Below, piece after piece: positions 30,055 to 58,171 of a stretch of DNA of 64,000 nt (within the stretch, counting starts at the first letter, position 1; each line of letters starts with the position of its first letter). Source of the DNA: Planktothrix tepida (lineage in GTDB: Bacteria > Cyanobacteriota > Cyanobacteriia > Cyanobacteriales > Microcoleaceae). The notes beneath the pieces were generated by a model that saw nothing but the letters and a program-made list of their open reading frames with translations, was not told where the DNA came from and did not search any database. A program made the position numbers and the translations under genes. Location of the stretch: NCBI RefSeq assembly GCF_904830955.1, contig NZ_LR882970.1. One strand, 5' to 3'.

Positions 30055-31422
30055 ATGAACATAACACTCCCAAATAGGTACGACTTCCTTTCTCGCTTCT
30101 TTAGACTAGCTTTCATCAATGTCCTGTCCAATATTATGGAGCCTCTGGCTGGGACAATCAGCTTAGCGTTCCTGGGCCATCTAACCGAAATCCATCACTT
30201 AGCAGGGGTTACTCTCTCTACCACTCTGTTTAACTTCACCTATTTCATTGTGAACTTTTTACGCATGGGAACCACTGGAGTGACAGCGCAAGCGGTGGGA
30301 CGGGATGACACCGAAGATATGCTGCTGGTGGGACTGCGTAATGCTTTAATCGGACTGGGTATAGGCGGACTGCTTCTGTTGTTGCAATATCCTCTGCAAC
30401 AGTTGTGGTTTGGTCTAATGAGCGTGACTCCAGAGGTTAAGGCTTCAGGTATTGACTATTTCAATGCCCGAATTTGGGGAGCGCCTGCGGTTGTCGTCAA
30501 TTTTGTTCTGATTGGGTGGTTTCTCGGACGAGAAATGAGTGGCTTTGTGTTGCTGATGACCCTAGTAGGCAATGCGGCTAATGTTGTGTTCGACTACCTG
30601 TTTATTGTCCGTTGGGACTGGGCAAGCACGGGGGCGGGACTGTCTCAGGCAATTAGCCAGTATCTGGTGTTAGTGGTAGGCATAATTTTGGCGAGTCTCA
30701 ATATCGAGTGGAAGGAAGCTCGAAGTGCAGCCAGAAAGTTTTGGGATGCCAGCGCATTTAAAGCGACTTTTACCCTGAACGGCAACCTCTTTATCAGGTC
30801 TTCGGCTAATATGTTCGTCGCCACCTTTTTCACGGCTCTAAGTTCTGCAATGGGGACAACTATCCTGGCTGAAAATGCCTTACTCTTACAAGTAATAATG
30901 CTTTCCAGTTACTTTTTTGAAGGAATAGGATTTGCTACCGAGACTTTGGGTGGAAATTTTAAAGGCAAACAAACAATAGATCGATTGTTGCCCCTATTGC
31001 AGGTGGCAGTCTCAACCAGCCTACTGGCGGCATTAATTTGTTCTGGAGTGTCTATCCTGTTCCCGAATACAGTCTTTGGGTTATTAACCAATCATAGTGA
31101 AGTGAAGGAACTTGTTAAAATCTATGTTTCTTGGCTACTCTCCAGACTGGGATTTAGTTCAATTGCTATGATACTGGATGGATACTTTGCTGGTTTAGCC
31201 CAAGGGCATTTTATACGTAACGCTACTTTAAGCGGAGCAATGTTTGGATTTGCGCCCTTAGCAGTCATGGCATGGCATTATCAGAGCAATCATCTCTTAT
31301 GGTTGGCTCTATCAATGTTCGCAGCAATAAGAGTGGTAGTGCTTGCGGTGCAGGTGTCCGCAACATTGAAAGATGAACCTCTGGTTGTCGCCGAGCAACT
31401 GCCTGATTCACGCATAGGTTGA
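30055..31422 (+). CDS. MATE-family efflux transporter (DinF-like)
   Basis: 455 aa with 12 predicted TM segments and a MATE N-terminal signature. Confidence 0.85.
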   Translation: MNITLPNRYDFLSRFFRLAFINVLSNIMEPLAGTISLAFLGHLTEIHHLAGVTLSTTLFNFTYFIVNFLRMGTTGVTAQAVGRDDTEDMLLVGLRNALIGLGIGGLLLLLQYPLQQLWFGLMSVTPEVKASGIDYFNARIWGAPAVVVNFVLIGWFLGREMSGFVLLMTLVGNAANVVFDYLFIVRWDWASTGAGLSQAISQYLVLVVGIILASLNIEWKEARSAARKFWDASAFKATFTLNGNLFIRSSANMFVATFFTALSSAMGTTILAENALLLQVIMLSSYFFEGIGFATETLGGNFKGKQTIDRLLPLLQVAVSTSLLAALICSGVSILFPNTVFGLLTNHSEVKELVKIYVSWLLSRLGFSSIAMILDGYFAGLAQGHFIRNATLSGAMFGFAPLAVMAWHYQSNHLLWLALSMFAAIRVVVLAVQVSATLKDEPLVVAEQLPDSRIG

Positions 31423-31536: not shown

Positions 31537-31809
31537 TTACAGTCTGCTGATAACGAAAGATTTGATAACGTTAACTGTTTCAAAATTCTCCAGTAAGAAT
31601 TCTTCTGGATTTAAGGTAATACCAAACTTTTCTTCCAGAAAGCTAGCCAGTCGAAAAATGCCCAGCGAGTCAACCAGTCCTTCTTCGATTATGGACAAAT
31701 CATTTGATAAAACCATATCGGGTCTATCGTACATGAAATTTTGGATAATATGCTCTTTAATTATCTGTTCTATCTGTGCTTCCGTGTACTTGTTTACGGC
31801 GGTCATTAT
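31537..31809 (-). CDS. stand-alone acyl/peptidyl carrier protein
   Basis: 90 aa from ATG 31809 (AAGGAG RBS 8 nt upstream). The phosphopantetheine attachment motif is LVDSLGIFRL. The ORF track begins at an upstream alternative start. Confidence 0.75.
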   Translation of the reverse strand: MMTAVNKYTEAQIEQIIKEHIIQNFMYDRPDMVLSNDLSIIEEGLVDSLGIFRLASFLEEKFGITLNPEEFLLENFETVNVIKSFVISRL

Positions 31810-31825
31810 CAATCTCCTTATTGAA

Positions 31826-33445
31826 CTATTTTGAATTCTCTTGAAGTTCTTCGGTACGCAGTAAGGTTTTGTCAATCTTGCCTGTAGGGGTTTTAGGTAA
31901 CCCAGAACGAAACTCAATTAGCTCCGGTATCATGTATTTAGGTAGACGCTGTGCACAAAAATATTCTACATCGCTCTTTTTGAGATTATTTCCATCCTGT
32001 GTGGCAATTATAGCCTTGATTTTCTTGCCGATTTCCTCATCGGGAATAGCAATTACGGCTGCTTCAACAATTGCAGGATGAGCGTATAGCGTCGTTTCAA
32101 TTTCATCCAGTTCAATTCGGTATCCTCGGCTCTTAATCTGGTTATCGCGACGACCTAAATAAATATAGTTGCCATCAGAATTGAGTTTCACTAAATCCCC
32201 AGTTCGGTAAACTTTTTCTAACCATCCGCAACCTGGTACGGGGAAAGGTGTGAGAGCCTGTTGGGTTTTGTCATGATTTCCCCAGTATCCTTTCATTAAG
32301 GAGGGGCTACGCACGTAAAGTTCCCCAACTTCTCCTGGTTTGGTAATTTCCTTGTGTTCATTAACGGCAAATACCTCTGTGTTGGCACAAGCTTTGCCAA
32401 TGGGCAGAGTTCTTACCTCTTCAGGAGGAATTTCCTTTACCGGATAGTAAGTACAGACATTTGTTTCTGTGGGTCCGTAGAGATTATAGTAGTTGGCTTG
32501 CGGTAGCAACTCCATAAGTTGACGCAGGTATTTAACTGGGAACACTTCCCCCGCAAACAAAATCGTCCGAATATGGGGAAATTGAGCCTGATGCAGGTTG
32601 CCGTAAACAATTAGCTGTCTCAGCACTGAAGGGACAGAATACCAGATGGTAATTTGTTGTTCTTCAATAAACTGAGCGAGGTTTCTGGGAAACACTGAGA
32701 GTTCCGGTGGTACCAGAATGACAGTCGCACCTGCTTTGATAGTGGTGAAGATATCAAAGATGGAAAGATCGAAATGAAGTGGGGCGTGATTGGAAACGCG
32801 ATCGCTCCTTTGTACCTGAAAGCAATCATAAGCCCAGTTGACAAAGGTTAGAGAAGCTCGATGGCTAATCATCACCCCTTTGGGAGTGCCAGTGGAGCCG
32901 GATGTGTAGAGAATGTAGGCAAGATCGTCTTCAATCAAATTGCTGGGTGGTGATGGGTTTGGCGGTGCTTGCAACACCTCTTGCCAAGACACCATCCTGA
33001 CATTTGACAGATTACCCGTGTCCTGTTGTGCTTCATCGTCAGCGAGTACCAGGCACTGGACACCAGAGGTGTTTGGCAGTTGAAGGCTGGCTATCTTTTT
33101 ATGGGTACTCACCAAAGCCTTCATCTGGCAATTGTCAATGATAAAGCCTATCCGCTTCGCAGGAGCTAAGGGGTCTAGGGGAACGTAGACAGATCCAGCT
33201 TTAAGGATACCGAAAATGGCAATGACTGCTTCAATGGATTTGTTCACGTAAATGCCGACGCGATCGCCTCTTGATATCCCGCAACTTATCAAGAGGTGGG
33301 CTAACTGATTAGAAACTTGGTCTAACTCCCGATACGTGATGCTGCTATTTTTATAGATTACAGCTTCCCGGTCTGGATATTGCTTGGCACTAATTTCTAA
33401 AAGCTGTTGCAGTAGATACGGCATGGGTTTTGGGCTGTCTTCCAT
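31826..33445 (-). CDS. stand-alone adenylation enzyme (amino acid-AMP ligase; AnaC/PltF-like)
   Basis: A-domain cores are present: A3 YTSGSTGTPKGV, A5 YGPTE, A7 YRTGDL, A8 GRRDNQIKSRGYRIELDEIE, A10 PKTPTGKIDK. No C or T domain. Start set at ATG 33445 (MEDSPKPMPYLLQQLLE...). Confidence 0.9.
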   Translation of the reverse strand: MEDSPKPMPYLLQQLLEISAKQYPDREAVIYKNSSITYRELDQVSNQLAHLLISCGISRGDRVGIYVNKSIEAVIAIFGILKAGSVYVPLDPLAPAKRIGFIIDNCQMKALVSTHKKIASLQLPNTSGVQCLVLADDEAQQDTGNLSNVRMVSWQEVLQAPPNPSPPSNLIEDDLAYILYTSGSTGTPKGVMISHRASLTFVNWAYDCFQVQRSDRVSNHAPLHFDLSIFDIFTTIKAGATVILVPPELSVFPRNLAQFIEEQQITIWYSVPSVLRQLIVYGNLHQAQFPHIRTILFAGEVFPVKYLRQLMELLPQANYYNLYGPTETNVCTYYPVKEIPPEEVRTLPIGKACANTEVFAVNEHKEITKPGEVGELYVRSPSLMKGYWGNHDKTQQALTPFPVPGCGWLEKVYRTGDLVKLNSDGNYIYLGRRDNQIKSRGYRIELDEIETTLYAHPAIVEAAVIAIPDEEIGKKIKAIIATQDGNNLKKSDVEYFCAQRLPKYMIPELIEFRSGLPKTPTGKIDKTLLRTEELQENSK

Positions 33446-33557
33446 AGAATGTTCAAACGATAATACAGCGAGATGAATTCGTACCAATTCTTCGTAGCGC
33501 GCCGCAGCGTTGTCTCGTAATCTCGCAAATGCTCTCGCGTAAACAAAAAATCACCCT

Positions 33558-34703
33558 CTATAATCCCATAAATTGGGCAATTATTTGGTACTGAATCTCA
33601 GAGGTTCCTGAATAAAGCTTGCTCCCTAACGCATCCCTTAATTCTCGTTCTAGTTCTAACTCAGTTAGATAGCCATAACCACCATGAATCTGAATTGCAT
33701 CAAGGCAGGACTGCACCCAAGATTCACTAATATAAAGTTTTGCCATTGCCGCTTCCATAATCGCCGTTTTTTTATTATTTTTTAACCATCCTACTTTATA
33801 CAGCAGCGCTCTAGCTGTTTCAAGTCGCATCTTCATGTCAACAATTTTGCTGCTAACTAACTGAAATTTTCCAATCGATTGACCAAATTGCTGGCGCTTC
33901 CTAGCATATTGAATGCAGCTTTCTAACAGACGTTCCATAGTCCCGATCGCACTGGCAAGAATGAATCCTCGCTCCCATTCCATACTGTGATTAAAGATAG
34001 CAAGTCCCGAACCCTCTTGACCAAGACGATTTTCACTCGGCACTTCACAATTTTCTAGGAACAGTTCACCTAACTGAGTCGTTCTTAAACCCATTTTGGA
34101 AATTTTACGATTGATCGCGACTCCGGCAAAATCTTTTTCGACGATAAATCCAGTAATTCCCCGTTTTCCTTTTTCGGGAGCGACATTCGCAAATACAATG
34201 TAAAGGTCAGCAACTGGACCATTTGTGACCCAATTCTTAACACCATTTAAGATGTACTTGTCTCCCTGTATTTTGGCAGTAGTCTTAAGATTGTAAATAT
34301 CCGAACCTGCTTCTGGTTCACTTGCCCCATGAGCGCCAATGAATTCACCGCTACAGAGTTTGGGGAGATACTTTTGTTTTTGAGCTTCGGTGCCAAAGGT
34401 TAAAATCGGTATTTCGCCAGCCCATATATGAGCGTTGATGGCAAAGATTAGACCATTGTCTTTACAACCATAACCTAAAGCTTCCAAGGCACAAATCGTT
34501 GTAAGAATATCTGTCCCAGTTCCCCCATAATGTTCAGGAATTGGCAGACCGATCAGACCAAATTTCCCACATTTTTCCCAACTTTCTCGGTTAAATTCTT
34601 CTCGCCAATCTAGGTCAATTAGATTTGATTGCAACTCTTGTTGGGCGAATTTAACAATCTTCTCTCTAAACTGAATTTGTTCCTCTGTCCATGAAAAGTC
34701 CAT
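33558..34703 (-). CDS. acyl-CoA dehydrogenase-family flavoprotein (candidate aminoacyl-S-carrier protein oxidase, AnaB/PltE-like)
   Basis: 381-aa ACAD fold (MDFSWTEEQ...). The catalytic-base region is YSGTSEIQ. It lies directly upstream of the A enzyme and carrier protein. Confidence 0.8.
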   Translation of the reverse strand: MDFSWTEEQIQFREKIVKFAQQELQSNLIDLDWREEFNRESWEKCGKFGLIGLPIPEHYGGTGTDILTTICALEALGYGCKDNGLIFAINAHIWAGEIPILTFGTEAQKQKYLPKLCSGEFIGAHGASEPEAGSDIYNLKTTAKIQGDKYILNGVKNWVTNGPVADLYIVFANVAPEKGKRGITGFIVEKDFAGVAINRKISKMGLRTTQLGELFLENCEVPSENRLGQEGSGLAIFNHSMEWERGFILASAIGTMERLLESCIQYARKRQQFGQSIGKFQLVSSKIVDMKMRLETARALLYKVGWLKNNKKTAIMEAAMAKLYISESWVQSCLDAIQIHGGYGYLTELELERELRDALGSKLYSGTSEIQYQIIAQFMGL

Positions 34704-34713
34704 TTTTCAAAGC

Positions 34714-36495
34714 TCATTGTGGTGATGAATGTATTCTTATATTGGAATCTGGGTGTCGTTGCTCTATTAACAATTTTCCGATTTCTGAAAGACACTGCTT
34801 GACAAGAGCGATGAAATCTTCCGGCTGTAGATGTTTACTCGTTACAGCAAAGGTAATCTTGTTGCGATCGATGACATAGCCGATTCCATAGTCGCGACAT
34901 GGACTGGGGCAGGCTATCTCTACACCCATTTTATTACTTAGGGCAGAAGCGGAGAAGCTTGGGTCTAAGATAACTTCTTCAAAGGTTTTATCTTGAAAAA
35001 TATCGAGAACACTGCTGCCTTTATAGCGAGCTAAGTTATAAAGCGCATAAAGGTGCATGACCACTCCCTGCCCGTTTTTAGTGTTAAACACTCGCCATAA
35101 ATGAGCGTTAACAGCACGTTTTAGAGTCCGATATCGCACTTCGTCTGAAGCTCCCTCAGTAAAGGCTTGAATGAGTTCTACAGATTCGGGTGTAACTACT
35201 AAGGCGTAGTCGTGCCGCCCGTACCGGAAGGTTCTGTTGTGTACAGCTTGCCAAGCGCTAGTAGTAATCTTACCATGCAGGCGAGTGTAAGCAATCTGTA
35301 GCGACAGGAGAAACACAGCATCAGCAATTAAACCATGTTGCTGGATAAAGTCTGACCCAAATTCGTCGAAAATTATTATCCCCATCTGAATTTGTTCGCT
35401 CAGACGCTCTGCATCTGTTAATGCTTGCGCTACTTCTTCTTTGAGTGTCCGATCTAACTTCCAGCACAGTCGCTGTGGTGGTTCGAGTTCGACTGAACTG
35501 GAGGATGTAAGGGATTCTTCAAGGGGTTCAAGCTCCCGGTTGACCTCGCTTATCAACCGTGCTACCGGATAACCATCGACATTACTGTGTTCAATTGTTA
35601 CAGCGAACTGACCCTCAGAGTTAAAAACGAGCCGAATAGGTTTATCGAACCATCGGTTTCGCGCACCATCTCCAGTAAAGGCAGTTCTTGCTAGCCTTTC
35701 CAAATCGGGAGGCGTTATTTCGTCTAAACAGACAACAAATAAGGCGCTATCCAATAGTTCTAGAGAGCAAGCGTTTTCTGCATCTAGGTTCGTGAGGTAG
35801 GAGCGAACTGTTGCCCACTGTTCTCTGGGGAGAGATGTCAGCACTCCCACAGGAAGTTCCCCTGGATGAGTATTTTCCAGAATCCAATCAATTTGCTGTG
35901 CTACAGCTTCCACCGACGGTAACGTATCCCCTGGGAGCAACTTTAAGACGTAAAACGTATCCCGTCGGATGACCACAATATGCTCAGAATTTTTCGCCCT
36001 TTGAAAGCTGTCACATTTGATTCCAGGAATTCGCGCACTGCCAAACAAATTGTCATACTGAGCCATACAAAGGGGAGGTTTGTTTCGTTGAAATACATCG
36101 CGATCTGGCTCTAGTTCCCGATATTTGATTTTCAGGTGGAATTGGAGGGTATTAAAAATTATGATGGCGACAATGCGGGTAAAGGAATATTTCGAGGTTG
36201 TCAAGACGGGCGAAGCCACCCCTGTGCTTCTCATATTTAGTTGTGAAGACCGCATTTCTAAATAGGTTTCCTCTTTAAATTGTTGTAAATAGTTAGTATT
36301 AGTTGAGCGGTCAATCATCTCCAATTGCTTCTGTAGTTCGACTCCACTCCCTTGTTGAAATTCCCTTACGGCGGTCTTAGTTCGCTCTAATTCTGTGTCA
36401 CTCAACAGCGGTGTTACCATCTCGATATAACGAGCGCAGGTGTCTGAGAGTTTGGGCAAAGGTAGTTTTGGAAGAGACTCTTGGAATTGATACAT
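34714..36495 (-). CDS. choline/carnitine O-acyltransferase-family protein
   Basis: The N-terminal LPKLPLPKLSDTCARYIEMV resembles the family signature LP+LPVP.L..T...Y. The catalytic His block is IEHSNVDGY (family motif EHSxxDG). 593 aa. Confidence 0.7.
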   Translation of the reverse strand: MYQFQESLPKLPLPKLSDTCARYIEMVTPLLSDTELERTKTAVREFQQGSGVELQKQLEMIDRSTNTNYLQQFKEETYLEMRSSQLNMRSTGVASPVLTTSKYSFTRIVAIIIFNTLQFHLKIKYRELEPDRDVFQRNKPPLCMAQYDNLFGSARIPGIKCDSFQRAKNSEHIVVIRRDTFYVLKLLPGDTLPSVEAVAQQIDWILENTHPGELPVGVLTSLPREQWATVRSYLTNLDAENACSLELLDSALFVVCLDEITPPDLERLARTAFTGDGARNRWFDKPIRLVFNSEGQFAVTIEHSNVDGYPVARLISEVNRELEPLEESLTSSSSVELEPPQRLCWKLDRTLKEEVAQALTDAERLSEQIQMGIIIFDEFGSDFIQQHGLIADAVFLLSLQIAYTRLHGKITTSAWQAVHNRTFRYGRHDYALVVTPESVELIQAFTEGASDEVRYRTLKRAVNAHLWRVFNTKNGQGVVMHLYALYNLARYKGSSVLDIFQDKTFEEVILDPSFSASALSNKMGVEIACPSPCRDYGIGYVIDRNKITFAVTSKHLQPEDFIALVKQCLSEIGKLLIEQRHPDSNIRIHSSPQ

Positions 36496-36520: not shown

Positions 36521-37492
36521 TCAGAATTGTGACATAGAAATCAAAATTTTTCTCGAACCAAAAAACGGTCTTCGTCCATGACAAACTAACATATTATCTA
36601 TGACTAGAACATCACCCTCCCGCCAAGGAAAAACAACAGTTTGTTTACCAATAGTTTCTCTAATTTCATCTAGCATTGAAACATCAATTGGAGTATTGTC
36701 GCCAAAGCAAGCATAGTGAGGGAGTTCCTCTTCGTTACCGTCAAAATAAAACATCATAGCTTCGTAGATATTTTTAGGAAGAGTAGATGGATGAAATAGA
36801 TCGGCTTGATTAAACCAAACTTGTTCATCTGTACGAGGATGAGTTGCAATAGCAGGACGAATCTGGCTTAATCGCAATCCTCCATCCTTCTTCCACTCAA
36901 AATCCATACCAGCTTTTCTATTATGCTCTTCTACTAGGGACTTATCTGAAGTTTTAAAAGCATCTTGCCATGAAACTCCCATGCCATTACTACTAGGTAA
37001 ATTGCGGATATACTTCACTTGTTTAAGTGTGAACTTTTCCACAATCTTTGGGTTAAGACTTTTGAGGATTTGGCGACTATCAGCAATTGGTGTTTCTCCG
37101 CCCTCTTTAGGCGCAGTAATACAGCAAAAATAGAGTTGGTCTGGCCATTGGCTAGAGTAGGATAACTCATTATGCAAACTAATGGAGTATTCAGCTGGAT
37201 ATTCAGTTGAAGTATAAATACCACTAGCTAGTTGGGTTCGGGGAGAATTTCCATCAACATAATCTATTAAATTACCTGAAATAGATTTAACGAATTTTTC
37301 AAAAGCTAAGATTGTATTGACATCAAAACCTCGAAAAAGAATCGCTCCGTGTTTCAAAATTTTGTTTGATAAAAGTTCACTATTATCTTTGTACCATGAA
37401 AGGAGATAATCAAAATTAGACGATTCGCGTTTTGTGTCAGGTTCTACTAGCAAGGGTAGATTGTGATTCGAGTCGAAAATTCCTATTTTCAT
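36521..37492 (-). CDS. Fe(II)/2-oxoglutarate-dependent dioxygenase, TauD/TfdA, SyrP or gamma-butyrobetaine-hydroxylase-like
   Basis: HxE facial-triad motif in ISLHNELSY. Distal His and Arg in LVCHGRRPFFG. 323 aa. Confidence 0.75.
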   Translation of the reverse strand: MKIGIFDSNHNLPLLVEPDTKRESSNFDYLLSWYKDNSELLSNKILKHGAILFRGFDVNTILAFEKFVKSISGNLIDYVDGNSPRTQLASGIYTSTEYPAEYSISLHNELSYSSQWPDQLYFCCITAPKEGGETPIADSRQILKSLNPKIVEKFTLKQVKYIRNLPSSNGMGVSWQDAFKTSDKSLVEEHNRKAGMDFEWKKDGGLRLSQIRPAIATHPRTDEQVWFNQADLFHPSTLPKNIYEAMMFYFDGNEEELPHYACFGDNTPIDVSMLDEIRETIGKQTVVFPWREGDVLVIDNMLVCHGRRPFFGSRKILISMSQF

Positions 37493-37566: not shown

Positions 37567-40500
37567 CTAAGCCAATGGAGCCTGTGTTTGCTTTAGGCAA
37601 GAGAGAAGTTGTGTGGCTAACACCTGTACGTGCGGCTGTTGCATCATGGTGCTATGGTTCCCTGGAACAACATGAATGTCTATAGTAGAAGAAAACTCGT
37701 TCCAGCCCAAAGCAGGTTCTTTTCGCCTTTGTTTCAACTCTTCTGTATCACCCTCAAATACATCAACCTCACTAGAACGGAAAAGAGTAATGGGAGCTTG
37801 TTGCAGCCCCGAAGGCAAATAAGCACGATGAGCTTTCAGGGACGCAATGTATACTTGCACTAGCCCCCGTACTAACCCTATTCCCGCATCAGGGGGTAGC
37901 AAATTGACCCGTATCAACCGTTCTTTGAGATAGTTCAATTGCTCCTCCTGAGATAGGGAAGCAAGAGTTTCTTTAGATACCTCCAACTTGAGGGAGAACA
38001 TATATTCAATATAGCTGGCAAAATCAAAAAGATATGCCACCTCATCTTCATCAGAATAATTCGGCTTATTAGCAACAATTGGCGCAACAACGTCAATAAT
38101 TGCAAGTAGAGCGACCTCATGCCCCTGTTTGAGCAACTGAGTTGCCATCTCAAAGGCAACTACACCTCCAAACGAATGCCCTCCCAGCAGGTACGGACCA
38201 GAGGGCTGAACTGTCTGTATTGCTTCAATATAGTAGGTGGCTATCTCTTCCAACTGTGTAAAAGGCTCTGATTCGCCATCCAGTCCCCGTGCTTGCAGAC
38301 CGTAGAAGGGTTGCTCAGATCCAAGATGACGCGCTAGCTCATATAAGTAAATCACATTTCCCCCAACTCCAGGCACAAAGAAGAAAGGTCGCTTCTCGGT
38401 GCCAGACTGAATTGCTACCAAAGGAGACCAAGGCAAGGAATGAGTTTCGGATCGAAGACAACTAGCTAGCTGTTCGATAGTTGGGCTAGAGAAAAGCGTT
38501 GCTATGGGCAGATTTTTCCCAAAATGCCGCGAAATTTGAGCCATTAAGAGTACAGCTAAAAGAGAATGACCTCCGAAAGTAAAGAAGTTATCCTTCATTC
38601 CAACAGTCGGAAGCTTCAAAACCTCTGACCAAATTTGCTGTAGTTGCTGTTCAACTGTGTCACGGGGAGGGACAAAGCCCATTGAGTTACTTAATTCCGT
38701 ATCTGGTGTCTCCAAGGCGCGACGGTCTACCTTACCATTGGGGGTGAGAGGTAAAGAAGAAAGCATCACAAAGGCTCCCGGCACCATGTAGTCTGGGAGC
38801 TTTTGTTGGAGGAAGTGCCGCAGTTCAATGGTGGCAGGAGGTTCATGGTTGGGAACAACATAAGCTACCAGTCGTTTGTTATCTGGTTGGTCATCCCTTG
38901 CTAAAACTACTGTCTCCCGTAACTCTGGGTGTTGAGCTAGCGCTGCTTCGATTTCTCCGAGTTCAATACGGAAACCGCGAATCTTCACTTGACGATCCAG
39001 CCGACCAAGGAACTCAATGTTACCGTCTGGAAGGTAGCGGGCATTGTCCCCGGTTTTGTAGAGGCGTGTTCCTTCTTCTTGGCTAAAGGGGTTGGGGATG
39101 AATTTTTCTTTTGTCAATTCTGGGCTGTTGAGGTAGCCTCGCGCCAGTCCAAAACCACCAATATGCACTTCCCCAGGTACACCAACAGGGACTGGTTGCA
39201 GATGGCAGTCGAGCAGATAAATTTGTGTGTTGGTGATCGGGCGACCGATAGGGACAATTTTGATTGGCTCATCCTGTTGTGCCGGAATTGGATAAGTGGC
39301 AACAATTCCACAAGTTTCAGTTTGACCAAACATATTGATTAATCGTGCTTTGTGCTGAAAACCAAACGTCCACTGAGTAGGAAGATCGGACAGCAGCGGT
39401 TCGCTCGCCGACACAATTAAACGCAGTTTGTTATCTAACAGTGCTTGTTTCGTAACAGGTTCTAAGCTAGCAAGTGTATGAATGCAGTTACGCCAATAAG
39501 AGGGGACAATATCAATAACTGTCACACTATGTTGTTTAATTGTCGTAAATAGTGATTGTGGGTCTTTTCTCTGTTCAGAAGTTGCAATTTTGACAGTTGC
39601 CCCACTAGCCAGAGGCACGATCAACTGTCTGACAGAAGATGAGAAAGCAATCGATGCGGTGTGCAAATATACATCTTCTGCTGTGATATTTAGCACTTGA
39701 CTCATTGCTTGGGCATAGTGACACAAATTAGCGTGTGTCACCTGTACTCCCTTTGGCTTTCCCGTTGAGCCAGAGGTATAAATGACATAGGCTAAATTAG
39801 CAACTGTTGCTGTTTGGTTTAAATTTTCTTCTGAGTGTTGAGCAATGAGATGCCTATCTGTATCTAAGCAAACAACTTGTGCCGTATGTTCAGGCAGTTC
39901 TGTTATCAAGCACTCCTGAGTCAACAACACCTTTGGTTGTGAATTTTGCAACATGAACGCTAAGCGCTCTTTGGGATAGGATGGGTCTAAAGGCACATAA
40001 GCCCCTCCAGTTTTGAGGATGCCAAGTAGACTCACTACCATCTCTAAGGAGCGATCAACGTAGATGCCCACCAGCACTTCTGGCTCCACACCTAGAGTTT
40101 TCAAGTGATGTGCTATTCTGTTCGCCCGTTGGTTCAAATCTTGGTAGGTCAGTTGCTCCCCTTCAAAAACCACCGCAATAGCATCAGGCGATCGCTCCAC
40201 CTGTTCCTCAAATAACTGGTGGATACACTTATTGAAGGGATACTCTTTTGTGGCGTTGTTCCACTCTACTAATAGCTGGTGTCGCTCTGGCTCTGTGAGC
40301 AATGGCAATTCTGAAACCTTCTGTTGAGGATTAGCAACAATTCCCTCTAGTAAGGTCTGAAAATGTTGAGCCATGCGATTGATCGTACTGGCATCAAACA
40401 AGTCAGTATTGTATTCCCACGTCCCGATTAGTCCAGAGTCGCTGTTGACGAAAGCTACAAACAAATCCAACTTCGCCGTAGCTGTTTCTACCGCTACTGG

Positions 40501-41820
40501 ACTCACCGTTAAGCCTTCCATGTCTATCTGCATCGCTGGGTAAAGCACAAACCTCACTTGGAAATACGGTGTGTAGCTTAAGTTACGCGCTGGCTGCAAT
40601 TGTTCTAATAACTTTTCAAACGGTAGGTCATGATGAGCGTATGCTCCCAAAGCCACGTCCCGGACTCTTGAGAGTAGCTCCTCAAAACTCGGATTACCTG
40701 ATATATCAGTCCGCAGAACCAACGTATTGAGAAACAATCCAATCAATCCCTGAAGCTCACGGCGCTCCCGGCCTGCGTAAGGCGTGCCTACGCAAATATC
40801 GGTCTGCTCTGTATAACGGTAAAGCAATGTGAAGAGCGCCGCCAACAGCGTCATAAACAGAGTAACTCCTTTGCGTTGACTTAAAATCATCAAAGCCTCT
40901 GTTAGTTCTTTTGAGAGTGCTTGTCGGTGACACGCCCCTCGAAACGTTTGAGTTGCTTTTCGCACTCGGTCAGTTGGCAGTTCCAATATTTCTGGCGCAC
41001 TCCTCAGTTGTTGCTTCCAATAAGCAAGTTGAGACTCTAGTATGTCTTCCTGTAACCACTGCCGCTGCCAAACAGCAAAGTCGGCGTACTGAATCGGTAG
41101 CTCTGGTAGCTCTGGTAGCAAGTCATTGCAGTAGGCTGTGTAGAAAGCTGCTAACTCTTTGACCAATACGCCCTCTGAAGGAGCATCCCAGACAATGTGA
41201 TGTATTGTTAGTAACAAGATATGTTCTGTCGGTGTTAGCTTTAGCACAGAAGCTTGAATCAACCCAGAGCTACTGAGGTCAAAGGGTTGCTGGATTTGTG
41301 CCCTGGCTTTTAGCCCCCAAGCAATTTCTCTTTCACTCTCAGGTAGCTCACTCAAATCTATGACTTGCACACTCAAGGTCAAGCCAAGAGCAATAACCTG
41401 AACGGGTTGCCCCTCAACCGTTGTGAAGTTGGTGCGTAAGACCTCGTGGCGTTGAATTATCTTGTTGAGGCTTTTCTCTAAAGCGACAACGTTGAGAGAA
41501 CCATTAAGTCGCAGAGCTAGTGGTACGTTGTAGAAGGGGTTAGTTGGCTCCAACTGGCTCAAGAACCACAGTCCTTCTTGGGCAAAAGACAGAGGCAAGT
41601 TACCAGTTCGCGAAACTCTTAGAAGGGGTAGGTCAGTATCATTGGCGATCGCATTGCTGTTCTGTAGCAACTTTACAAGTTCTGCCTTATGCAATGCCAG
41701 TAAATTACGTACCTCTGGTGTCAGTACCTTCTTTGGTGCCCGCACGCGCAACTGGTCGTCTTCGACCCACAACTTCACACCAGCTAGGGCGAGTTCAGCT
41801 ACAAATTGCTTAAGGTTCAT
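37567..41820 (-). CDS. single-module non-ribosomal peptide synthetase: N-terminal TubC-type docking domain, C, A, T and TE
   Basis: The N-terminus (MNLKQFVAELALAGVKLWVEDDQLRVRAPKKVLTPEVRNLLALHKAELVKLL) matches the TubC-type docking-domain pattern. The C domain has HHIVWDA. The A domain has LAYVIYTSGSTGKPKGV, NMFGQTE, YKTGD and GRLDRQVKIRGFRIELGEIE. The T domain has FFTFGGHSLLAV. The TE has GHSFGGVVAFEMA (GxSxG). Confidence 0.95.
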   Translation of the reverse strand: MNLKQFVAELALAGVKLWVEDDQLRVRAPKKVLTPEVRNLLALHKAELVKLLQNSNAIANDTDLPLLRVSRTGNLPLSFAQEGLWFLSQLEPTNPFYNVPLALRLNGSLNVVALEKSLNKIIQRHEVLRTNFTTVEGQPVQVIALGLTLSVQVIDLSELPESEREIAWGLKARAQIQQPFDLSSSGLIQASVLKLTPTEHILLLTIHHIVWDAPSEGVLVKELAAFYTAYCNDLLPELPELPIQYADFAVWQRQWLQEDILESQLAYWKQQLRSAPEILELPTDRVRKATQTFRGACHRQALSKELTEALMILSQRKGVTLFMTLLAALFTLLYRYTEQTDICVGTPYAGRERRELQGLIGLFLNTLVLRTDISGNPSFEELLSRVRDVALGAYAHHDLPFEKLLEQLQPARNLSYTPYFQVRFVLYPAMQIDMEGLTVSPVAVETATAKLDLFVAFVNSDSGLIGTWEYNTDLFDASTINRMAQHFQTLLEGIVANPQQKVSELPLLTEPERHQLLVEWNNATKEYPFNKCIHQLFEEQVERSPDAIAVVFEGEQLTYQDLNQRANRIAHHLKTLGVEPEVLVGIYVDRSLEMVVSLLGILKTGGAYVPLDPSYPKERLAFMLQNSQPKVLLTQECLITELPEHTAQVVCLDTDRHLIAQHSEENLNQTATVANLAYVIYTSGSTGKPKGVQVTHANLCHYAQAMSQVLNITAEDVYLHTASIAFSSSVRQLIVPLASGATVKIATSEQRKDPQSLFTTIKQHSVTVIDIVPSYWRNCIHTLASLEPVTKQALLDNKLRLIVSASEPLLSDLPTQWTFGFQHKARLINMFGQTETCGIVATYPIPAQQDEPIKIVPIGRPITNTQIYLLDCHLQPVPVGVPGEVHIGGFGLARGYLNSPELTKEKFIPNPFSQEEGTRLYKTGDNARYLPDGNIEFLGRLDRQVKIRGFRIELGEIEAALAQHPELRETVVLARDDQPDNKRLVAYVVPNHEPPATIELRHFLQQKLPDYMVPGAFVMLSSLPLTPNGKVDRRALETPDTELSNSMGFVPPRDTVEQQLQQIWSEVLKLPTVGMKDNFFTFGGHSLLAVLLMAQISRHFGKNLPIATLFSSPTIEQLASCLRSETHSLPWSPLVAIQSGTEKRPFFFVPGVGGNVIYLYELARHLGSEQPFYGLQARGLDGESEPFTQLEEIATYYIEAIQTVQPSGPYLLGGHSFGGVVAFEMATQLLKQGHEVALLAIIDVVAPIVANKPNYSDEDEVAYLFDFASYIEYMFSLKLEVSKETLASLSQEEQLNYLKERLIRVNLLPPDAGIGLVRGLVQVYIASLKAHRAYLPSGLQQAPITLFRSSEVDVFEGDTEELKQRRKEPALGWNEFSSTIDIHVVPGNHSTMMQQPHVQVLATQLLSCLKQTQAPLA

Positions 41821-42070
41821 AGAGCGATTTCCTTCATACTGTCATCGAGTTCAGTGGATGGGGATGCTGACTGGAGCAGAGCCAATGCCCATTGCTCTAG
41901 CATTAGCTCTGCTAGAGAGGAAATGCTCACACCCTCCATAATTTTCATAACAGGCATCACCCCCGACTTGAACCAGGGCTGTTTCAAAGTCGGGGGGAAA
42001 AGAGTAAAGAAATAGCGATCGCTAGCTGATAAAATCAAAAGCGGTCGCTGATTTTTTTGTAAAAATAAAG

Positions 42071-43270
42071 ATGCTAACAATTCTAATAGAAAAACTGAAA
42101 AAAGTCAAGGATTACCGGAAAGCCCAGGGAACAAGGCATCCAATATGGCTAGTATTATTAATAGTCATTTTGGGGCTAATGTCGAGAAATTTAGGGTACA
42201 GAGAACTCGAAAATTTTGCGAAAATCAATCAATACCAACTGAGTCAAGTTTTAAAAATCAAGCTAGAAAAACTGCCATCATACTCAACAATAAGAAGAGT
42301 AATACAAGGAGTAGATTGGTTAAATTTAATTGAGATATTTAATGAATGGGCTACTTGTAATTATCCGCATCAAGAAGAACTAGATTGGTTAGCAGTAGAT
42401 GGAAAAAGCCTGAGAAGCACTCTCAAAGATTTTGGAGATAAATCCCAAAATTTTGTGATGATTGTTGCACTGTTTAGTCAAAGAACAGGATGCGTATTAA
42501 ACCTGAGAAAGATGGAGAACAAAAAAGAATCAGAAATCAGCCAAGCCCAAAAGATAGTAAGGGATTGCCAGTTAAAAAGAAAAGTAATAACCTTTGATGC
42601 GTTGCACTGTAATCAGAAAACTGCTGCCCTAGTTATTGAGAGCGGGAATGATTATATAATGGCTTTAAAGAAAAATCAAAAAAAGTTATATGAGCAAGTT
42701 GAAGCGGTAATAAAAAGTGAAAATCCTGTGAGTGTAGATGTGACTCATGAACACAGCCATGGCAGAAAAGTGACTCGAAAAGTTTCCATTTATCAAGTCA
42801 ATAACAACTTTCACAAAGGCTGGAAACATCTGAAACTTGTGATTCAGATAGAAAGAAGTGGCAACAGAGGAAAAAAACCCTATCAAGAAAAAGTATATTA
42901 TATCAGTAGTGCCGTTAACGAAGCTCAAACCTTAGCTCAAATCATTAAAGGACATTGGGGGATTGAGAATCAATACCATTGGGTAAAAGATGTAATTTTT
43001 CAAGAAGATAAAAGCCGAATTCGTAACTTTCAAGCAGCTAGCAACTTTTCAACTCTTAAAACTCTGGTAATCAATCTTTTCAGAAGTTGGGGTTTTGTAT
43101 CAATAACAGAAGGACAACTTTTTCGCCTCATTCCTAAAAATTGGGGACTCAATTTGACTCCCCAATTTGGGAAAATGAAACAGCCCTGGGAATTTGAAGG
43201 GGGTTCCTGTCCCGATGCCATTATATCGTTTATCTCGTTCTGCCTTAAAACCGGGTATGAACCGATTTGA
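42071..43270 (+). mobile_element. ISAs1-family (IS4/IS5 superfamily, DDE) transposase gene, apparently intact
   Basis: 399 aa. The N-terminal DYRKAQGTRHPIWLVLLIVILGLMSRNLGYRELENFAK is typical of ISAs1/H-repeat transposases. The C-terminal DDE_Tnp_1 region carries the E in HWGIENQYHWVKDV. Terminal IRs were not identified by eye. Confidence 0.75.
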
Positions 43271-43424: not shown

Positions 43425-43955
43425 TCAATTGTTTATTCTATCTCTCAATTTAAAGTGAAAACGTCCTGCGTAGAATATCGCACTGATTAACACATTAAGG
43501 GTTAGTTTAAGCCAAGCCCCTACTACGCCGAAAGACATAACGCTTGTTAGTAATAATGAAACAGGTATCATTACAAACCAACCGCCTAATAAACTGATAT
43601 TTCGCACATAGAAAGTATCATTTAATCCCACCAAAGCGGCTCGGTAAATCATAAAAATAGCATCGCCAGCTTGGTAAAAAATATGAATACGCAGAATGGT
43701 AGTAGTGGTTGCTATGACTTCAGTGTCGTTACTGAATATTCCGATGACTAACGGCGAAAAAACTAGGGCGAGAATGCTAACTCCTTCCATCATTATAACT
43801 GCCCAGCAGGCGGCAAGGGATGATTCTTCTTTTGCGCCAACTGCGTCGTTACGCGCTATCGCATGGGCGACTTGAACGGTTGTCATACTGGCAGCACCTG
43901 CGCCAAAGATGTAACCAATATCTTTAATTCTCATCCCGATAGTGTGTGCCGCCAT
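43425..43955 (-). pseudogene. C-terminal half of a second MATE efflux transporter, N-terminal half missing
   Basis: 176 aa corresponding to MATE TM8-12. Upstream coding sequence is replaced by an IS5-type remnant. Confidence 0.7.
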
Positions 43956-44951: not shown

Positions 44952-47111
44952 CTATTTTACACCCCTCCCTTGCACCTGATTCATTTTTTCTTGTCTTCTC
45001 CTCCCCTCTGTTCTGGCTTTTCGCCTTTTTTCAGCAAGCCCTAAATAACGACCAACCCCAACATATCGGAAATATTCTAGCTTGCCACCGGAGTGACTGC
45101 GGCGATCGCTCGTATATCGAAAGCCGAGGATATTGCCCACTGGTGACGAAGGGACAATGGCTAAATAGTCTCGTGGTGGGCGATTGACCAGGGATAAGCT
45201 AGTGTCGTGAAAGTCGATCACCTGCGATCGCATTAAAGCACTGAGGTGGTCAAGCACAAAGCTTAACCGATTCGCCAGAACTGTCACCAAGATGGCGAAC
45301 TGTAAATGGCGCGTCGCTTCCTCAAACTGGGTTTTATCGGTCAGAGAAATATTCACAGCCTCTAGCCATCGCTTCAACCAGTCCCCGATTTCCGCTAATG
45401 CAACTTGATCACTTTCACCACTGAGTAAGGTAAACGCCAAATCGGATAGTTCTCCTCCTTTGCGACGATTGAGAGGAGCTTGCAAAAATCTCTCAAGGGT
45501 CTGCATCAGTTGTTTGCGACGCTGACGTTCTTCAACTGGAGGTAAACCCGCTTCAATGCGTTTTTGTCGTTGTTGACTGCGTTCACTGCGAGTCAGTTTA
45601 GGTTGGGTTTGCTGATTATCTGTTTCTAAGGGAGGTTCTAGAATATCTCGAATAATATGGGCAAAGACTGAACGACCTGTAAACGGAGTTGAGCCTAACC
45701 ATTGCACCAGTTTCGGTTGATTGTGAAGTTTAGGCAGAATAATATCAGTGGCAATTTGAGCAAAATCATTCGCTTTCTTGGCATCTGCAATCAGTTTAGC
45801 TGCCAGAGGGCGACGATCAGAATTATAAATTGCATTGGCGAATTTAATTCCTAATTGATTTAATAAGGAATTTCCAGAAGCATCCACTAACACTTCATCA
45901 GGTGCAAACGCTTCATCAAACTGCACTTGGACTCGATCTGCTTCATCAATAAAAAGAAAGTGGCATTCACGGTAAACGGCTTCAGCAAACGTTAGTTTTT
46001 CTTCTAACAATTGGCGGGGAATGGGAGTATGAATCAAACTCGCTGGGGTTAATACCCAAACTAAAGATTGTCCAATGTCTCGTTCTAATTGATGATGAGG
46101 GCATTGGTAATAAAAAGGGCAGGTGCTATATTTATTATTTTCAGTTTCTTCTTCCTCACCTTCATCATCATCACTAGGACTATTCTGATTTATACTGTTC
46201 ACTTTTTGGTAAAGATTATGGCAAGGTTCGGAACCAAATTCCCATTTTTCCTCCGCTTGAACTAATGCTAATAAGGGGCAGATTGGATTAAACCAACGCC
46301 ATGCCGGATGGGTAGCTCCTTGATAAATTTCTTCTCCTTTTGTGGATAGAATAGGTTCATAAACTTTTTCTAATTGTTGAAAGCGATCGCTTCCTAGGAT
46401 AGGAGTTGCTGGAATGCCTAAACCATGGGAAAATAAAGAAGCGAGTCGTACCTGTGCCACCACATCATTCACAATTAAAGCACAGCGATATCCTTGTTTA
46501 GCGAGAGAGTAAATCAGAATTTCAAGCAAGGTCGATTTACCCACATTCAATAAACCGACGATATGGAGCAATTTGTCTAGTTTGAGTTCTTGATTTTGAT
46601 CACAGAAATTATCAGTTGATTCGTTATAAATTCGCCAGTTAATTTCTTTAAGTCGGCTATCATAATTTTCTGGTTCATATCCGCATTCAGCTAATTTAGC
46701 GTCCATTTCCCTGGCTGAACTGAGCAACTCCTCTTTAGTGATGGTTTGAGCAAAATTGTTTTGTTGGCGAATGTGATTAAACGCTACATTTCGCGAGAGA
46801 TCAAGATTAGCAACGGCTTCGGGAATATTGATAGGAACTTCTACGGGTGCATGACCTTTGTTAGAAATTTTTGCATACCAATAGCCCGTAGAGGCAAGTT
46901 TAATTTTTCGTTTGCTATGAGAGGGTGTTGTTGATAAGGTTTCTTTATAAAAAGAATGGCGTTGAGGGTGAATTGTGGTCGGAATTAAGACAGGGCTATC
47001 GTTATCAGGAAAACTGATTGCTCTGTCTGGAGTGGTGGGTTGTGGCAAAACTTTAACGCTGCGACGGCTACAAGAGACCTTGAGGAAAGGTGGCAAGATT
47101 TTGGTTTCCAA
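44952..47111 (-). CDS. large P-loop NTPase of unknown family
   Basis: Walker A is LHIVGLLNVGKSTLLEIL, Walker B is FLFIDEADRVQ, and there is a Cys/His cluster CPFYYQCPHH. The N-terminal about 140 codons of the tracked ORF are low-complexity and overlap plus-strand ExeA-like fragments. A likelier start is near MDAKLAECGYE (about 46700). Confidence 0.5.
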   Translation of the reverse strand: METKILPPFLKVSCSRRSVKVLPQPTTPDRAISFPDNDSPVLIPTTIHPQRHSFYKETLSTTPSHSKRKIKLASTGYWYAKISNKGHAPVEVPINIPEAVANLDLSRNVAFNHIRQQNNFAQTITKEELLSSAREMDAKLAECGYEPENYDSRLKEINWRIYNESTDNFCDQNQELKLDKLLHIVGLLNVGKSTLLEILIYSLAKQGYRCALIVNDVVAQVRLASLFSHGLGIPATPILGSDRFQQLEKVYEPILSTKGEEIYQGATHPAWRWFNPICPLLALVQAEEKWEFGSEPCHNLYQKVNSINQNSPSDDDEGEEEETENNKYSTCPFYYQCPHHQLERDIGQSLVWVLTPASLIHTPIPRQLLEEKLTFAEAVYRECHFLFIDEADRVQVQFDEAFAPDEVLVDASGNSLLNQLGIKFANAIYNSDRRPLAAKLIADAKKANDFAQIATDIILPKLHNQPKLVQWLGSTPFTGRSVFAHIIRDILEPPLETDNQQTQPKLTRSERSQQRQKRIEAGLPPVEERQRRKQLMQTLERFLQAPLNRRKGGELSDLAFTLLSGESDQVALAEIGDWLKRWLEAVNISLTDKTQFEEATRHLQFAILVTVLANRLSFVLDHLSALMRSQVIDFHDTSLSLVNRPPRDYLAIVPSSPVGNILGFRYTSDRRSHSGGKLEYFRYVGVGRYLGLAEKRRKARTEGRRRQEKMNQVQGRGVK

Positions 47112-47181
47112 ATCTTTGTCAGTGGATAAAAGTCGGGCGAGTTTGGCAACTAGAAAATCTGATCACAACAGAAGCGATTGA
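46975..47181 (+). pseudogene. N-terminal fragment of an ExeA/TniB-like AAA ATPase (transposition helper)
   Basis: GKLIALSGVVGCGKTLTLRRLQ is Walker-A-like and typical of ExeA-type ATPases. Only 68 codons survive. A possible C-terminal fragment (TEAIDVLAKRLRTPLQI) at 47090-47290 is in a different frame. Confidence 0.35.
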
Positions 47182-47193
47182 TGTGCTGGCTAA

Positions 47194-47385
47194 ACGGTTG
47201 AGAACTCCGCTACAAATAATAAAATTAAAATACCTGCCAAGAAATTCTGTAAAATATCTCGAAAGGCAAACCCAATTGCTACCCCACTAATACCCAATAA
47301 TTGGACTAAATCTCCCGCTTTCAAAGAAGGAATAATAATCGATAATGCGATAAACAAACCGACCAGGATTGTTGTGCCTTGGGCT
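47194..47385 (-). pseudogene. fragment of an MscS-family mechanosensitive channel gene
   Basis: The minus-strand frame encodes ...SIIIPSLKAGDLVQLLGISGVAIGFAFRDILQNFLAGILILLFVAEFSTV*, which is the MscS pore-helix signature (GxAxGFAxxDxxxNFxAG). It is truncated at both ends. Confidence 0.45.
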
Positions 47386-47488
47386 AATCGTCAGACTTTT
47401 GAACTCATGCGTCGTTACTGATGTTAGTCAAATTGAGTGGAATTAAAATCTATCTAAGGTTGGTAATTGCGACAACACTCTAAAATAA

Positions 47489-49089: not shown

Positions 49090-49122
49090 AAAAAAATGTT
49101 GAAGTTGTTAGGAATTGTTAAA

Positions 49123-49153
49123 GAAACCCGATTTCTTGAAGAAACCGGGTTTC
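49123..49153 (-). terminator. terminator hairpin downstream of giant gene 1 (duplicated at 58129-58159)
   Basis: gaaacccg / cgggtttc is a perfect 8-bp stem with a 15-nt loop, 13 nt after the stop, followed by a T-rich stretch on the coding strand. Confidence 0.6.
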
Positions 49154-49165
49154 GGGATGTATTCG

Positions 49166-57907: not shown

Positions 57908-58128
57908 TTCAGTTGATTAATTAATGGCCAAAGGATTCTAATCAGTAGTTGCCGGGAGATCGCACCCATTTGAAGGGATGAACAGGAAGGACGATCTCTA
58001 TTGACCCGATGTACAATTTTTCCTCGGTTTAAACAGTACAATCGGGGAAATTGCCGTTGGGTATATCTGGAGAACGTCTTAATTTAACGTTAATAACTCT
58101 AGTATACTCGATTTTAGGAATCTTTAAA

Positions 58129-58159
58129 GAAACCCGATTTCTTGAAGAAACCGGGTTTC
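58129..58159 (-). terminator. terminator hairpin downstream of giant gene 2
   Basis: Same gaaacccg...cgggtttc hairpin as at 49123-49153. Confidence 0.6.
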
Positions 58160-58171
58160 GGGATTTCTTCG

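Follow-up and report, generated by a model that had tools for sequence, protein, structure and literature searches.

A carnitine/choline acyltransferase-family enzyme in a Planktothrix NRPS operon may take its acyl group from a carrier protein

We analyzed a 64,000-nucleotide stretch of the genome of the cyanobacterium Planktothrix tepida (contig NZ_LR882970.1 of assembly GCF_904830955.1; hereafter, the window), which carries a non-ribosomal peptide synthetase (NRPS) operon. Our subject is one gene of this operon, whose product we call cAT:

34714–36495, minus strand: cAT, a stand-alone enzyme of the choline/carnitine-acyltransferase fold (593 aa, ATG start, intact open reading frame (ORF))

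We propose that cAT is probably a stand-alone, carrier-protein-dependent O-acyltransferase, which would move an acyl group from its thioester on a peptidyl carrier protein (PCP) to a hydroxyl, forming an ester. In this proposal, both the donor and the acceptor are deduced from gene context. A trans transfer of an acyl or pyrrolyl group from a carrier protein had been suggested by an earlier reading of the DNA alone (the original prediction). The pairing of cAT with PCP genes, two fusions to carrier domains, the loss of two lysines that bind coenzyme A (CoA) and a conserved gene block now lend a carrier-protein donor strong comparative support.

cAT is a member of the carnitine/choline acyltransferase family

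The coding strand of 34714–36495 is the minus strand, the plus strand being riddled with stops. The translation contains the two motifs that had drawn attention to this ORF, SLPKLPLPKL at residues 7–16 and TIEHSNVDGYP at residues 300–310. Against Pfam, the top and sole match was PF00755 (Carn_acyltransf), with an E value of 9.3e-135 and a score of 450.8 bits where the cutoff is 22.3, in an alignment that spans profile positions 1–568 of 574 and is thus near full length; the Condensation (PF00668) and Transferase models had no match at E<=0.01, and no NCBIfam model matched cAT. A phmmer search of the PDB returned only CPT2, CrAT, COT and ChAT (E 1e-57 to 1e-49), and the identity of cAT to these eukaryotic enzymes is 24–28% over the full length. 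The AlphaFold2 model of cAT (pLDDT 86, pTM 0.88) has the CrAT-type two-domain fold, and Foldseek superposed it on COT, CrAT, ChAT and CPT2 with TM scores of 0.84–0.90 (rmsd 2.7–3.6 Å). Since the Pfam match, the PDB matches and the superposition of the model agree, membership of cAT in the family, as originally predicted, is secure.

The next-best Foldseek matches were the epimerization (E) and condensation (C) domains of NRPSs and the WS/DGAT enzymes, at TM scores of just 0.26–0.40. The resemblance of cAT to NRPS C domains is only a remote one of fold, with no PF00668 match. Rarity in bacteria, another part of the original prediction, is roughly right: a scan of 185,579 species genomes gave at least 85 matches. 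The description of cAT as eukaryote-type did not hold up. In a neighbor-joining tree, cAT falls within a bacterial, mostly cyanobacterial clade apart from the eukaryotic enzymes, to which it is about 30% identical, and a recent transfer of the gene from eukaryotes is unsupported by this tree.

The catalytic dyad is kept and the carnitine- and CoA-binding residues are replaced

We aligned cAT to human CrAT (1NM8), rat CPT2 and about 160 homologs to map its active site. The catalytic E-H dyad is present as Glu302-His303, with His303 at the position of His343 of human CrAT and His372 of CPT2, in agreement with the predicted catalytic His; this His is conserved in every locus of our residue table except L069, which has Gln. 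The S-T-S motif of CrAT appears as S515-A516-S517, with both Ser residues present and Ala in place of the middle Thr, so that the equivalent of the transition-state-stabilizing Ser554 of CrAT is kept as Ser517.

Tyr452, Ser454, Thr465 and Arg518 of CrAT, which in the 2003 structure of Jogl and Tong are reported to bind the carnitine carboxylate, are Trp415, Ala417, His428 and Met480 in cAT, and the acyl-tunnel gatekeeper Met564 is Ala528. A literature search on the roles of Arg518 and Thr465 gave nothing relevant. A sister cyanobacterial clade retains Y-E-S/T/D-R at the carnitine-binding positions. CrAT Lys419 and Lys423, both Lys in all eukaryotic references of the alignment, are Ser381 and Gln385 in cAT; these lysines hold the 3′-phosphate of CoA (PMC11852590). 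With the residues for both the carnitine carboxylate and the CoA 3′-phosphate replaced, cAT is, as read from its alignment, a family member that lacks the features by which carnitine and choline acyltransferases are defined.

These substitutions bear on one alternative, in which cAT is an ordinary acyl-CoA:carnitine/choline O-acyltransferase of primary or osmolyte metabolism that lies next to NRPS genes fortuitously. Its NCBI annotation as 'choline/carnitine O-acyltransferase' and its CrAT fold and dyad are what such an enzyme would have, but Tyr452, Ser454, Thr465, Arg518, Lys419 and Lys423 are all replaced, the operon neighbors are 10–25 nt away and homologs are fused to carrier domains. We regard this alternative as extremely improbable, and on the active-site residues we reject a canonical CrAT or ChAT function. 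The 'carnitine-like' chemistry once suggested for the operon loses its footing in the same way, since every carnitine-carboxylate position is substituted.

The acceptor side of the active site is the most variable part of the cAT clade. The window cAT and the cAT of the related metagenomic locus L170 are 50–60% identical over acceptor-side residues 481–540, compared with 77% overall. Such variability would fit acceptors that differ from one cluster to another.

Carrier proteins accompany cAT in several loci

We scanned JGI metagenomes in addition to the 185,579 species genomes and looked up gene contexts, which yielded 157 distinct loci; the context look-up for Rivularia PCC 7116 gave no result. 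Two of the homologs are fused to carrier domains. In the metagenomic locus L090 (3459–9383), a single 1974-aa protein has the order cAT-A-KR-ACP (A stands for adenylation, KR for ketoreductase and ACP for acyl carrier protein); its cAT is 75% identical to the query, and its gene comes directly after a polyketide synthase (PKS) gene whose product ends in ACP-TE (TE, thioesterase). In L027 (4994–11719), from a metagenome-assembled genome of a marine cyanobacterium, the protein is KS-AT-KR-ACP-cAT (KS, ketosynthase; AT, acyltransferase), which mirrors the architecture of fungal PKS-cAT proteins.

The window cAT is unfused, with an 89-aa PCP encoded in the same operon, and orthologous PCPs flank cAT in L002, L085, L086 and L170. 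PCPs 80%, 69% and 64% identical to that of the window are encoded directly upstream of cAT in L086, L085 and L002, respectively, and these three loci carry A enzymes different from that of the window. In L085 and L086/L087, 46 aa of an A domain of the window type survive as a relic. An Aerosakkonema locus has the order cAT-A-PCP-sulfotransferase.

Both lysine positions could be aligned in 155 loci, and we counted PCP, ACP, C, KS and TE as thiotemplate neighbors. Both lysines are lost in 30 of the 155 loci, 16 of which have thiotemplate neighbors; where the lysines are kept, in the other 125, such neighbors occur in only 3 (Fisher p 4e-11, odds ratio 46; the loci are not phylogenetically independent). 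The query clade, monophyletic in the neighbor-joining tree, which is unsupported, has lost both lysines and the carnitine set, and its neighbors are PCP, A, NRPS and PKS genes.

A second, larger bacterial group of about 50 loci includes Rivularia, Calothrix and Mastigocoleus and, more distantly, Pseudonocardia, Nocardia and gammaproteobacteria. It retains Lys423, Y-E-S and Thr465, the cyanobacterial members also having Asp-Arg518, and is almost always paired with a divergent HalD/WelO5-like Fe/2-oxoglutarate (2OG) enzyme; thiotemplate genes are absent. The H-x-D motif of the partner marks it as a hydroxylase, and together the two enzymes may form a bacterial module that hydroxylates and then O-acylates a carnitine-like compound. 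The cyanobacterial loci are L007, L009–L017, L019–L022, L026, L028–L030 and L038; the others are L039, L045 and L047–L077 (Pseudonocardia, Nocardia and gammaproteobacteria).

The surveyed loci also bear on whether cAT might be a chain-release enzyme of the fungal type, its donor being the full chain bound to the NRPS or PKS and its acceptor a small polyol or alcohol. There is fungal precedent for such off-loading (PMC10901484), the cAT domain of L027 is fused directly to the final ACP in a PKS module, and in Microcoleus BROC3 (L004) cAT follows an NRPS without a TE. However, a terminal TE of its own ends the assembly line in the window, L001, L170 and L090/L093, and cAT co-varies with separate A and carrier cassettes, to one of which it is fused in L090. 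With a TE-bearing assembly line and a separate A/PCP cassette, cAT resembles a late acyl-coupling enzyme rather than a chain-release domain, and we consider chain release improbable.

Several cAT loci have neighbors of other kinds. L002/L005 (Nostoc sp. CHAB 5844) and L085 have cAT and its PCP with an unrelated A enzyme and genes of the aminodeoxychorismate/chorismate type, namely PabAB-like, chorismate mutase and class IV aminotransferase genes; GNAT and histone-deacetylase-like amidohydrolase genes are also present, and L085 has a vanadium haloperoxidase as well. This context suggests a donor derived from an aromatic amino acid and perhaps an amine acceptor. L083 (8536–19832) has a cAT with 78% identity to the query, flanked on one side by a WelO5-like Fe/2OG enzyme and on the other by a PKS whose loading module is of the AprA type (pivaloyl/t-butyl starter); its vicinity also includes radical SAM, FGE-sulfatase and MatE genes.

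The cAT operon and its putative donor cassette

cAT is embedded in a cyanobacterial NRPS operon, as had been noted: the genes around it are on the same strand, 25 nt separating it from the upstream TauD gene and 10 nt from the downstream dehydrogenase gene. The order on the minus strand is PKS relic, NRPS, TauD oxygenase, cAT, dehydrogenase (DH), A, PCP, after which comes a convergent MatE gene:

41817–41956, minus strand: PKS 3′ relic, the final ~45 codons, which cover the ACP end and the docking tail of an upstream PKS that is intact in Microcoleus (tblastn to the L001 PKS C-terminus, 38/45 identical)
37567–41820, minus strand: single-module NRPS, TubC_N docking-C-A-T-TE (T, thiolation), 1417 aa (Pfam domains)
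36521–37492, minus strand: TauD/TfdA-family Fe(II)/2-oxoglutarate oxygenase, 323 aa (PF02668, E 5e-40; HxE...H present)
33558–34703, minus strand: putative L-prolyl-S-carrier-protein dehydrogenase, a flavoprotein of 381 aa (Acyl-CoA_dh domains; 100% identical to a Planktothrix tepida protein)
33442–33546, minus strand: 35-codon relic of an FAD-dependent halogenase of the pyrrolyl-PCP type (97% DNA identity to L170 13056–13155)
31826–33487, minus strand: stand-alone A enzyme, probably proline-specific (AMP-binding domains)
31537–31806, minus strand: PCP, 89 aa, with a DSL serine motif, proposed to supply cAT with its acyl group (PF00550, 24.2 bits against a cutoff of 20.8)
30055–31422, plus strand: MatE-family exporter, convergent with the operon (PF01554)

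The last genes of the operon look like a cassette for a proline-derived acyl group: the three genes expected of a pyrrole-2-carboxyl-S-PCP cassette of the PltF/PltL/PltE or RedM/RedO/RedW type (stand-alone A, discrete PCP and acyl-CoA-dehydrogenase-like protein) are all there. The specificity code of the A enzyme is DLFYLALVCK, a probable Pro code (a GrsA control recovered DAWTIAAICK), and the enzyme matches the prolyl ligase PltF (6O6E) with 356 bits. Its start is probably near 33447, giving 539 aa rather than 553; the L088 copy is annotated as 539 aa. The dehydrogenase gave 447 bits with the NCBIfam model PigA and 401 with RedW, both under the cutoffs (500 and 650, respectively).

The gene order and orientation of dehydrogenase, A and carrier are those of the ana cluster as well. 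The best PDB match of the dehydrogenase is AnaB of anatoxin-a biosynthesis (AnaB/AnaC/AnaD; 4IRN, 590 bits), to which it is roughly 70% identical, as judged by eye from the alignment; AnaB makes (S)-pyrroline-5-carboxyl-AnaD (PMC3252866). We considered whether the cassette is a fragment of an anatoxin cluster and rejected this. Unlike the ana cluster, the window has no PKS of the anaE, anaF or anaG type after the PCP, where the convergent MatE gene lies instead, and every close relative of the cassette (84–94%) has a PltA-type FAD halogenase between the dehydrogenase and A genes. This placement of the halogenase suggests that the chemistry is that of pyrrolyl-S-PCP, as with PltA/PltE, more than that of a pyrroline starter, and the halogenase partner in L170–L173 likewise argues for a pyrrole as the candidate donor group.

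In the mechanism that we propose, the A enzyme (539/553 aa) would load L-proline on the 89-aa PCP, and the dehydrogenase would oxidize prolyl-S-PCP to the pyrrole-2-carboxyl (or 1-pyrroline-5-carboxyl) thioester. The phosphopantetheine arm would then enter the tunnel that holds CoA in CrAT, His303 would deprotonate the acceptor hydroxyl in the remodeled 'carnitine' tunnel, and the hydroxyl would attack the thioester to yield the ester. The acceptor would most likely be a product or intermediate of the adjacent assembly line, possibly hydroxylated by the TauD oxygenase, which is a candidate for this role in Microcoleus too.

This oxygenase had been described as gamma-butyrobetaine-hydroxylase-like, a label that found no support. 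It is a generic TauD protein that matches the NCBIfam model TMLD (TIGR02410) only partially and with 37.7 bits against a cutoff of 268.3, and its best PDB matches are the uncharacterized At3g21360 (1Y0Z) and 9YUT. It is 91% identical to the Microcoleus D2 copy at the equivalent position.

The NRPS, whose DNA is 93% identical to that of Microcoleus sp. D2_18a_B4, has the A-domain specificity code SSRDVAMGIK. In this domain (about residues 535–1035), Ser replaces Asp235, the alpha-amino anchor, and GQTE replaces GPTE; its substrate is probably not a standard alpha-amino acid.

A conserved block within a recombinant cluster

The closest homolog of the dehydrogenase on a long contig is in L170. 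This metagenomic locus encodes an NRPS/PKS (A-T-KS-AT-DH-KR-ACP-TE), cAT, dehydrogenase, S-adenosylmethionine (SAM) methyltransferase, FAD halogenase, A, PCP and MatE, and its proteins are 77% (cAT), 94% (dehydrogenase), 91% (A) and 94% (PCP) identical to those of the window. At the DNA level, window 36506–33545 aligns unbroken with L170 8201–11159, and the 10-nt junction between cAT and the dehydrogenase gene is identical. The unbroken match shows that this junction is native, and a chance juxtaposition of cAT and the proline cassette is largely rejected.

Downstream, window 33543–33444 corresponds to 100 nt from the interior of the halogenase gene of L170 (97% DNA identity; by tblastn, 91% over 35 codons), window 33443–31471 aligns with the A and PCP genes of L170, and 31425–30050 aligns with its MatE gene. 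The gap that the alignment leaves around the halogenase relic means that the window has deleted the methyltransferase gene and most of the halogenase gene.

The L170 and L090/L093 loci provide a natural donor-swap experiment. Their assembly lines are 84% identical in the C-terminal ~1100 residues (tblastn) and about 84–87% at the DNA level in the rest, and both have cAT; the donor cassette differs, with halopyrrole genes in L170 and the fused A-KR-ACP in L090/L093. A broader reading of the cAT lineage, to which we give about an even chance, is that it is a portable late-stage acyl-coupling module of thiotemplate pathways, which would esterify the product of an assembly line with an acyl group brought by a separately loaded carrier protein and around which donor cassettes are swapped, with the CoA tunnel converted to the docking of a holo-carrier protein, independently of and in parallel to the fungal cAT domains. 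The swapped cassettes would be the halopyrrole set DH-MT-Hal-A-PCP (MT, methyltransferase; Hal, halogenase), the fused A-KR-ACP, and A-PCP with chorismate/aminodeoxychorismate-type genes.

The window itself is a recombinant. Its 41956–34788 region is 93% identical at the DNA level to Microcoleus sp. D2_18a_B4, in which the equivalent NRPS-TauD-cAT genes come after one for a PKS of at least 2203 aa. The match breaks off some 25 codons short of the cAT stop codon, and the tail from there on matches L170 and L089. The Microcoleus-type body and the L170/L089-type tail place the recombination hinge within the 3′ end of the cAT gene. That the cluster is recombinant and partly eroded is a feature absent from the original prediction.

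Several observations weigh against the proposal. Residues 1–570 of cAT are 88% identical to the Microcoleus-D2 type and 77% to the L170 type, and in the Microcoleus locus no donor cassette is present within 10 kb; a Microcoleus-type cAT body and a cassette-free Microcoleus locus imply that the native donor of the window cAT may be something other than pyrrolyl-PCP. The closest solved relative of the dehydrogenase, AnaB, forms a pyrroline and not a pyrrole. The association of lysine loss with thiotemplate genes, besides its lack of phylogenetic independence, represents about two evolutionary events, since the thiotemplate-linked enzymes are one clade (that of the query) and L027 in the unsupported tree, and 14 loci have lost both lysines without a detected thiotemplate neighbor; short contigs and members of a separate clade of alphaproteobacteria make up several of the 14. 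The cluster is eroded, with its PKS truncated next to an insertion sequence and its methyltransferase and halogenase genes deleted. Finally, a promoter/terminator scan, uninformative in itself, showed no promoter enrichment, with fewer sites than in shuffled sequence.

With the PKS, methyltransferase and halogenase lost, the pathway in Planktothrix may have become simpler or may have ceased to yield a product. In the extreme case, the operon would be a relic, with cAT intact but the pathway making no product and offering no current substrate, and with the DH-A-PCP genes brought adjacent by recombination. Just 45 PKS codons are left, beside an insertion sequence with perfect inverted repeats; the methyltransferase and halogenase deletions leave a 35-codon remnant; there are a recombination hinge in the cAT 3′ end and a truncated MatE gene (43425–43955), and the promoter scan showed no enrichment. 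On the other hand, all six remaining operon ORFs are full length with their catalytic motifs, and the cAT-dehydrogenase junction, being identical in L170, is native. The arrangement also recurs in a second genome, the closest one, Planktothrix pseudagardhii (LR882967.1), which is 99.8% identical over 14.8 kb and has the same insertion sequence. The ratio of nonsynonymous to synonymous substitution rates (dN/dS) is about 0.3 for the NRPS, TauD and cAT genes compared with Microcoleus and 0.25–0.46 across all cAT pairs, with no rise on the Planktothrix branch in comparisons with three relatives. These values are compatible with continued moderate purifying selection on cAT, TauD and the NRPS, and a dN/dS of about 0.3 argues against pseudogenization. 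We consider a relic unlikely, if less so than chain release.

In the metagenomic L089 (1–5807), the cAT is 88% identical to that of the window and has the same C-terminal tail; its TauD gene is split, the last 40 codons being duplicated on both sides of an insertion with MatE and a 409-aa ORF, which is further evidence of frequent rearrangement around cAT. L172 (4537–9866) and L173 (559–5624) have close relatives of the DH-halogenase-A cassette (84–86%) without cAT and carry instead a free-standing C domain (464–467 aa), a DUF3179 protein, a second halogenase and a PCP.

Comparison with known transferases

The nearest bacterial functional analogy to the proposed cAT reaction is in the biosynthesis of the aminocoumarin antibiotics. 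With CouN1/CouN7 and CloN1/CloN7, proline loaded on a PCP is converted to pyrrolyl-S-PCP by an acyl-CoA-dehydrogenase-like flavoprotein, and a dedicated acyltransferase transfers the pyrrole-2-carbonyl group to a scaffold hydroxyl. The pyrrolyl transferase there is of the serine alpha/beta-hydrolase type, unrelated to the His-dependent carnitine-acyltransferase fold, so that cAT would be a non-homologous replacement of CouN7/CloN7.

In fungi, cAT domains are found at the C-terminus of highly reducing PKSs (HR-PKSs), namely Tv6-931 of Trichoderma virens, which acts in polyol release and recapture, and LtbA of Aspergillus luteorubrus, which off-loads onto glucinol (PMC10901484). These domains off-load ACP-bound acyl chains onto the polyols or glucinol (PMC10901484). 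They share with the window cAT the Pfam family and the conserved His and Ser and, if our proposal is correct, the transfer of a carrier-bound acyl group to a hydroxyl other than that of carnitine; fusion to a carrier domain recurs in the two bacterial homologs L027 and L090. Unlike them, the window cAT is bacterial and free-standing, lies beside a TE-bearing assembly line and is paired with an A and PCP cassette. The bacterial clade is separate from the eukaryotic enzymes in the neighbor-joining tree.

CrAT, COT, CPT2 and ChAT (1NM8, 1NDB, 1XL7, 2H4T and 1Q6X) have in common with cAT the two-domain fold, the LPxLPxPxL motif, the E-H dyad and the Ser554 equivalent, but in cAT the carnitine set, the CoA lysines and Met564 are replaced and the genomic context is thiotemplate. 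Ester-forming C domains, WS/DGAT and PapA5-type enzymes belong to the same structural superfamily and use a His-based mechanism on pantetheine thioesters. cAT differs from them in having no PF00668 match, low TM scores (0.26–0.40), a length of 593 aa and carnitine-acyltransferase motifs. In L172/L173, where a free-standing C domain occupies a related halopyrrole cassette in place of cAT, the C domain may be a non-orthologous replacement of the transferase within one fold superfamily.

Our searches of the accessible literature found no bacterial cAT in a biosynthetic cluster, and the carrier-protein-dependent cases documented were only those of fungal HR-PKSs. The fold and the chemistry are known, and their trans-acting, donor-cassette-coupled use in bacteria appears to be undescribed. 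If the proposal is correct, the off-loading and esterification chemistry of fungal PKS cAT domains extends to bacteria in a free-standing form, and cAT would be a natural case of a CoA-binding site turned to carrier-protein recognition. Such enzymes could serve as tools for decorating the scaffolds of natural products with carrier-bound acyl groups, pyrroles and hydroxy acids among them. The proposal would also supply a genome-mining signature, PF00755 proteins that have lost the equivalents of Lys419/Lys423 and of Tyr452/Ser454/Thr465/Arg518, which would separate carrier-protein-dependent cATs from true CoA/carnitine-type enzymes and which flags the uncharacterized cyanobacterial clusters L170, L090/L093, L083, L004, L002/L085 and L027.

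Other features of the window

The insertion sequence lies upstream of the operon:

41973–43189: insertion sequence with an ISAs1/IS4-type DDE transposase (transposase ORF 42071–43270, plus strand; PF01609, PF13808)

Its termini are perfect 14-nt inverted repeats (41973–41986 and 43176–43189), and it begins 17 nt from the breakpoint (41956) at which the Microcoleus PKS homology ends. The best sigma-70-like -35/-10 pair directed into the operon, on the minus strand at 42108–42080, falls inside this element.

The MatE gene at the other end of the operon is 84% identical in DNA to the MatE gene at the same position in L170 and 67% identical to those of L083 and L089. The truncated MatE gene (176 aa) lies just past the insertion sequence. 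There are no NRPS genes among this gene and those at 44952–63721; the latter comprise a weak STAND-NTPase match, GNAT and sulfotransferase genes at 47489–49089, and genes for two giant secreted-type proteins, DUF4347/RTX (2913 aa) and FG-GAP/cadherin/RTX (1849 aa).

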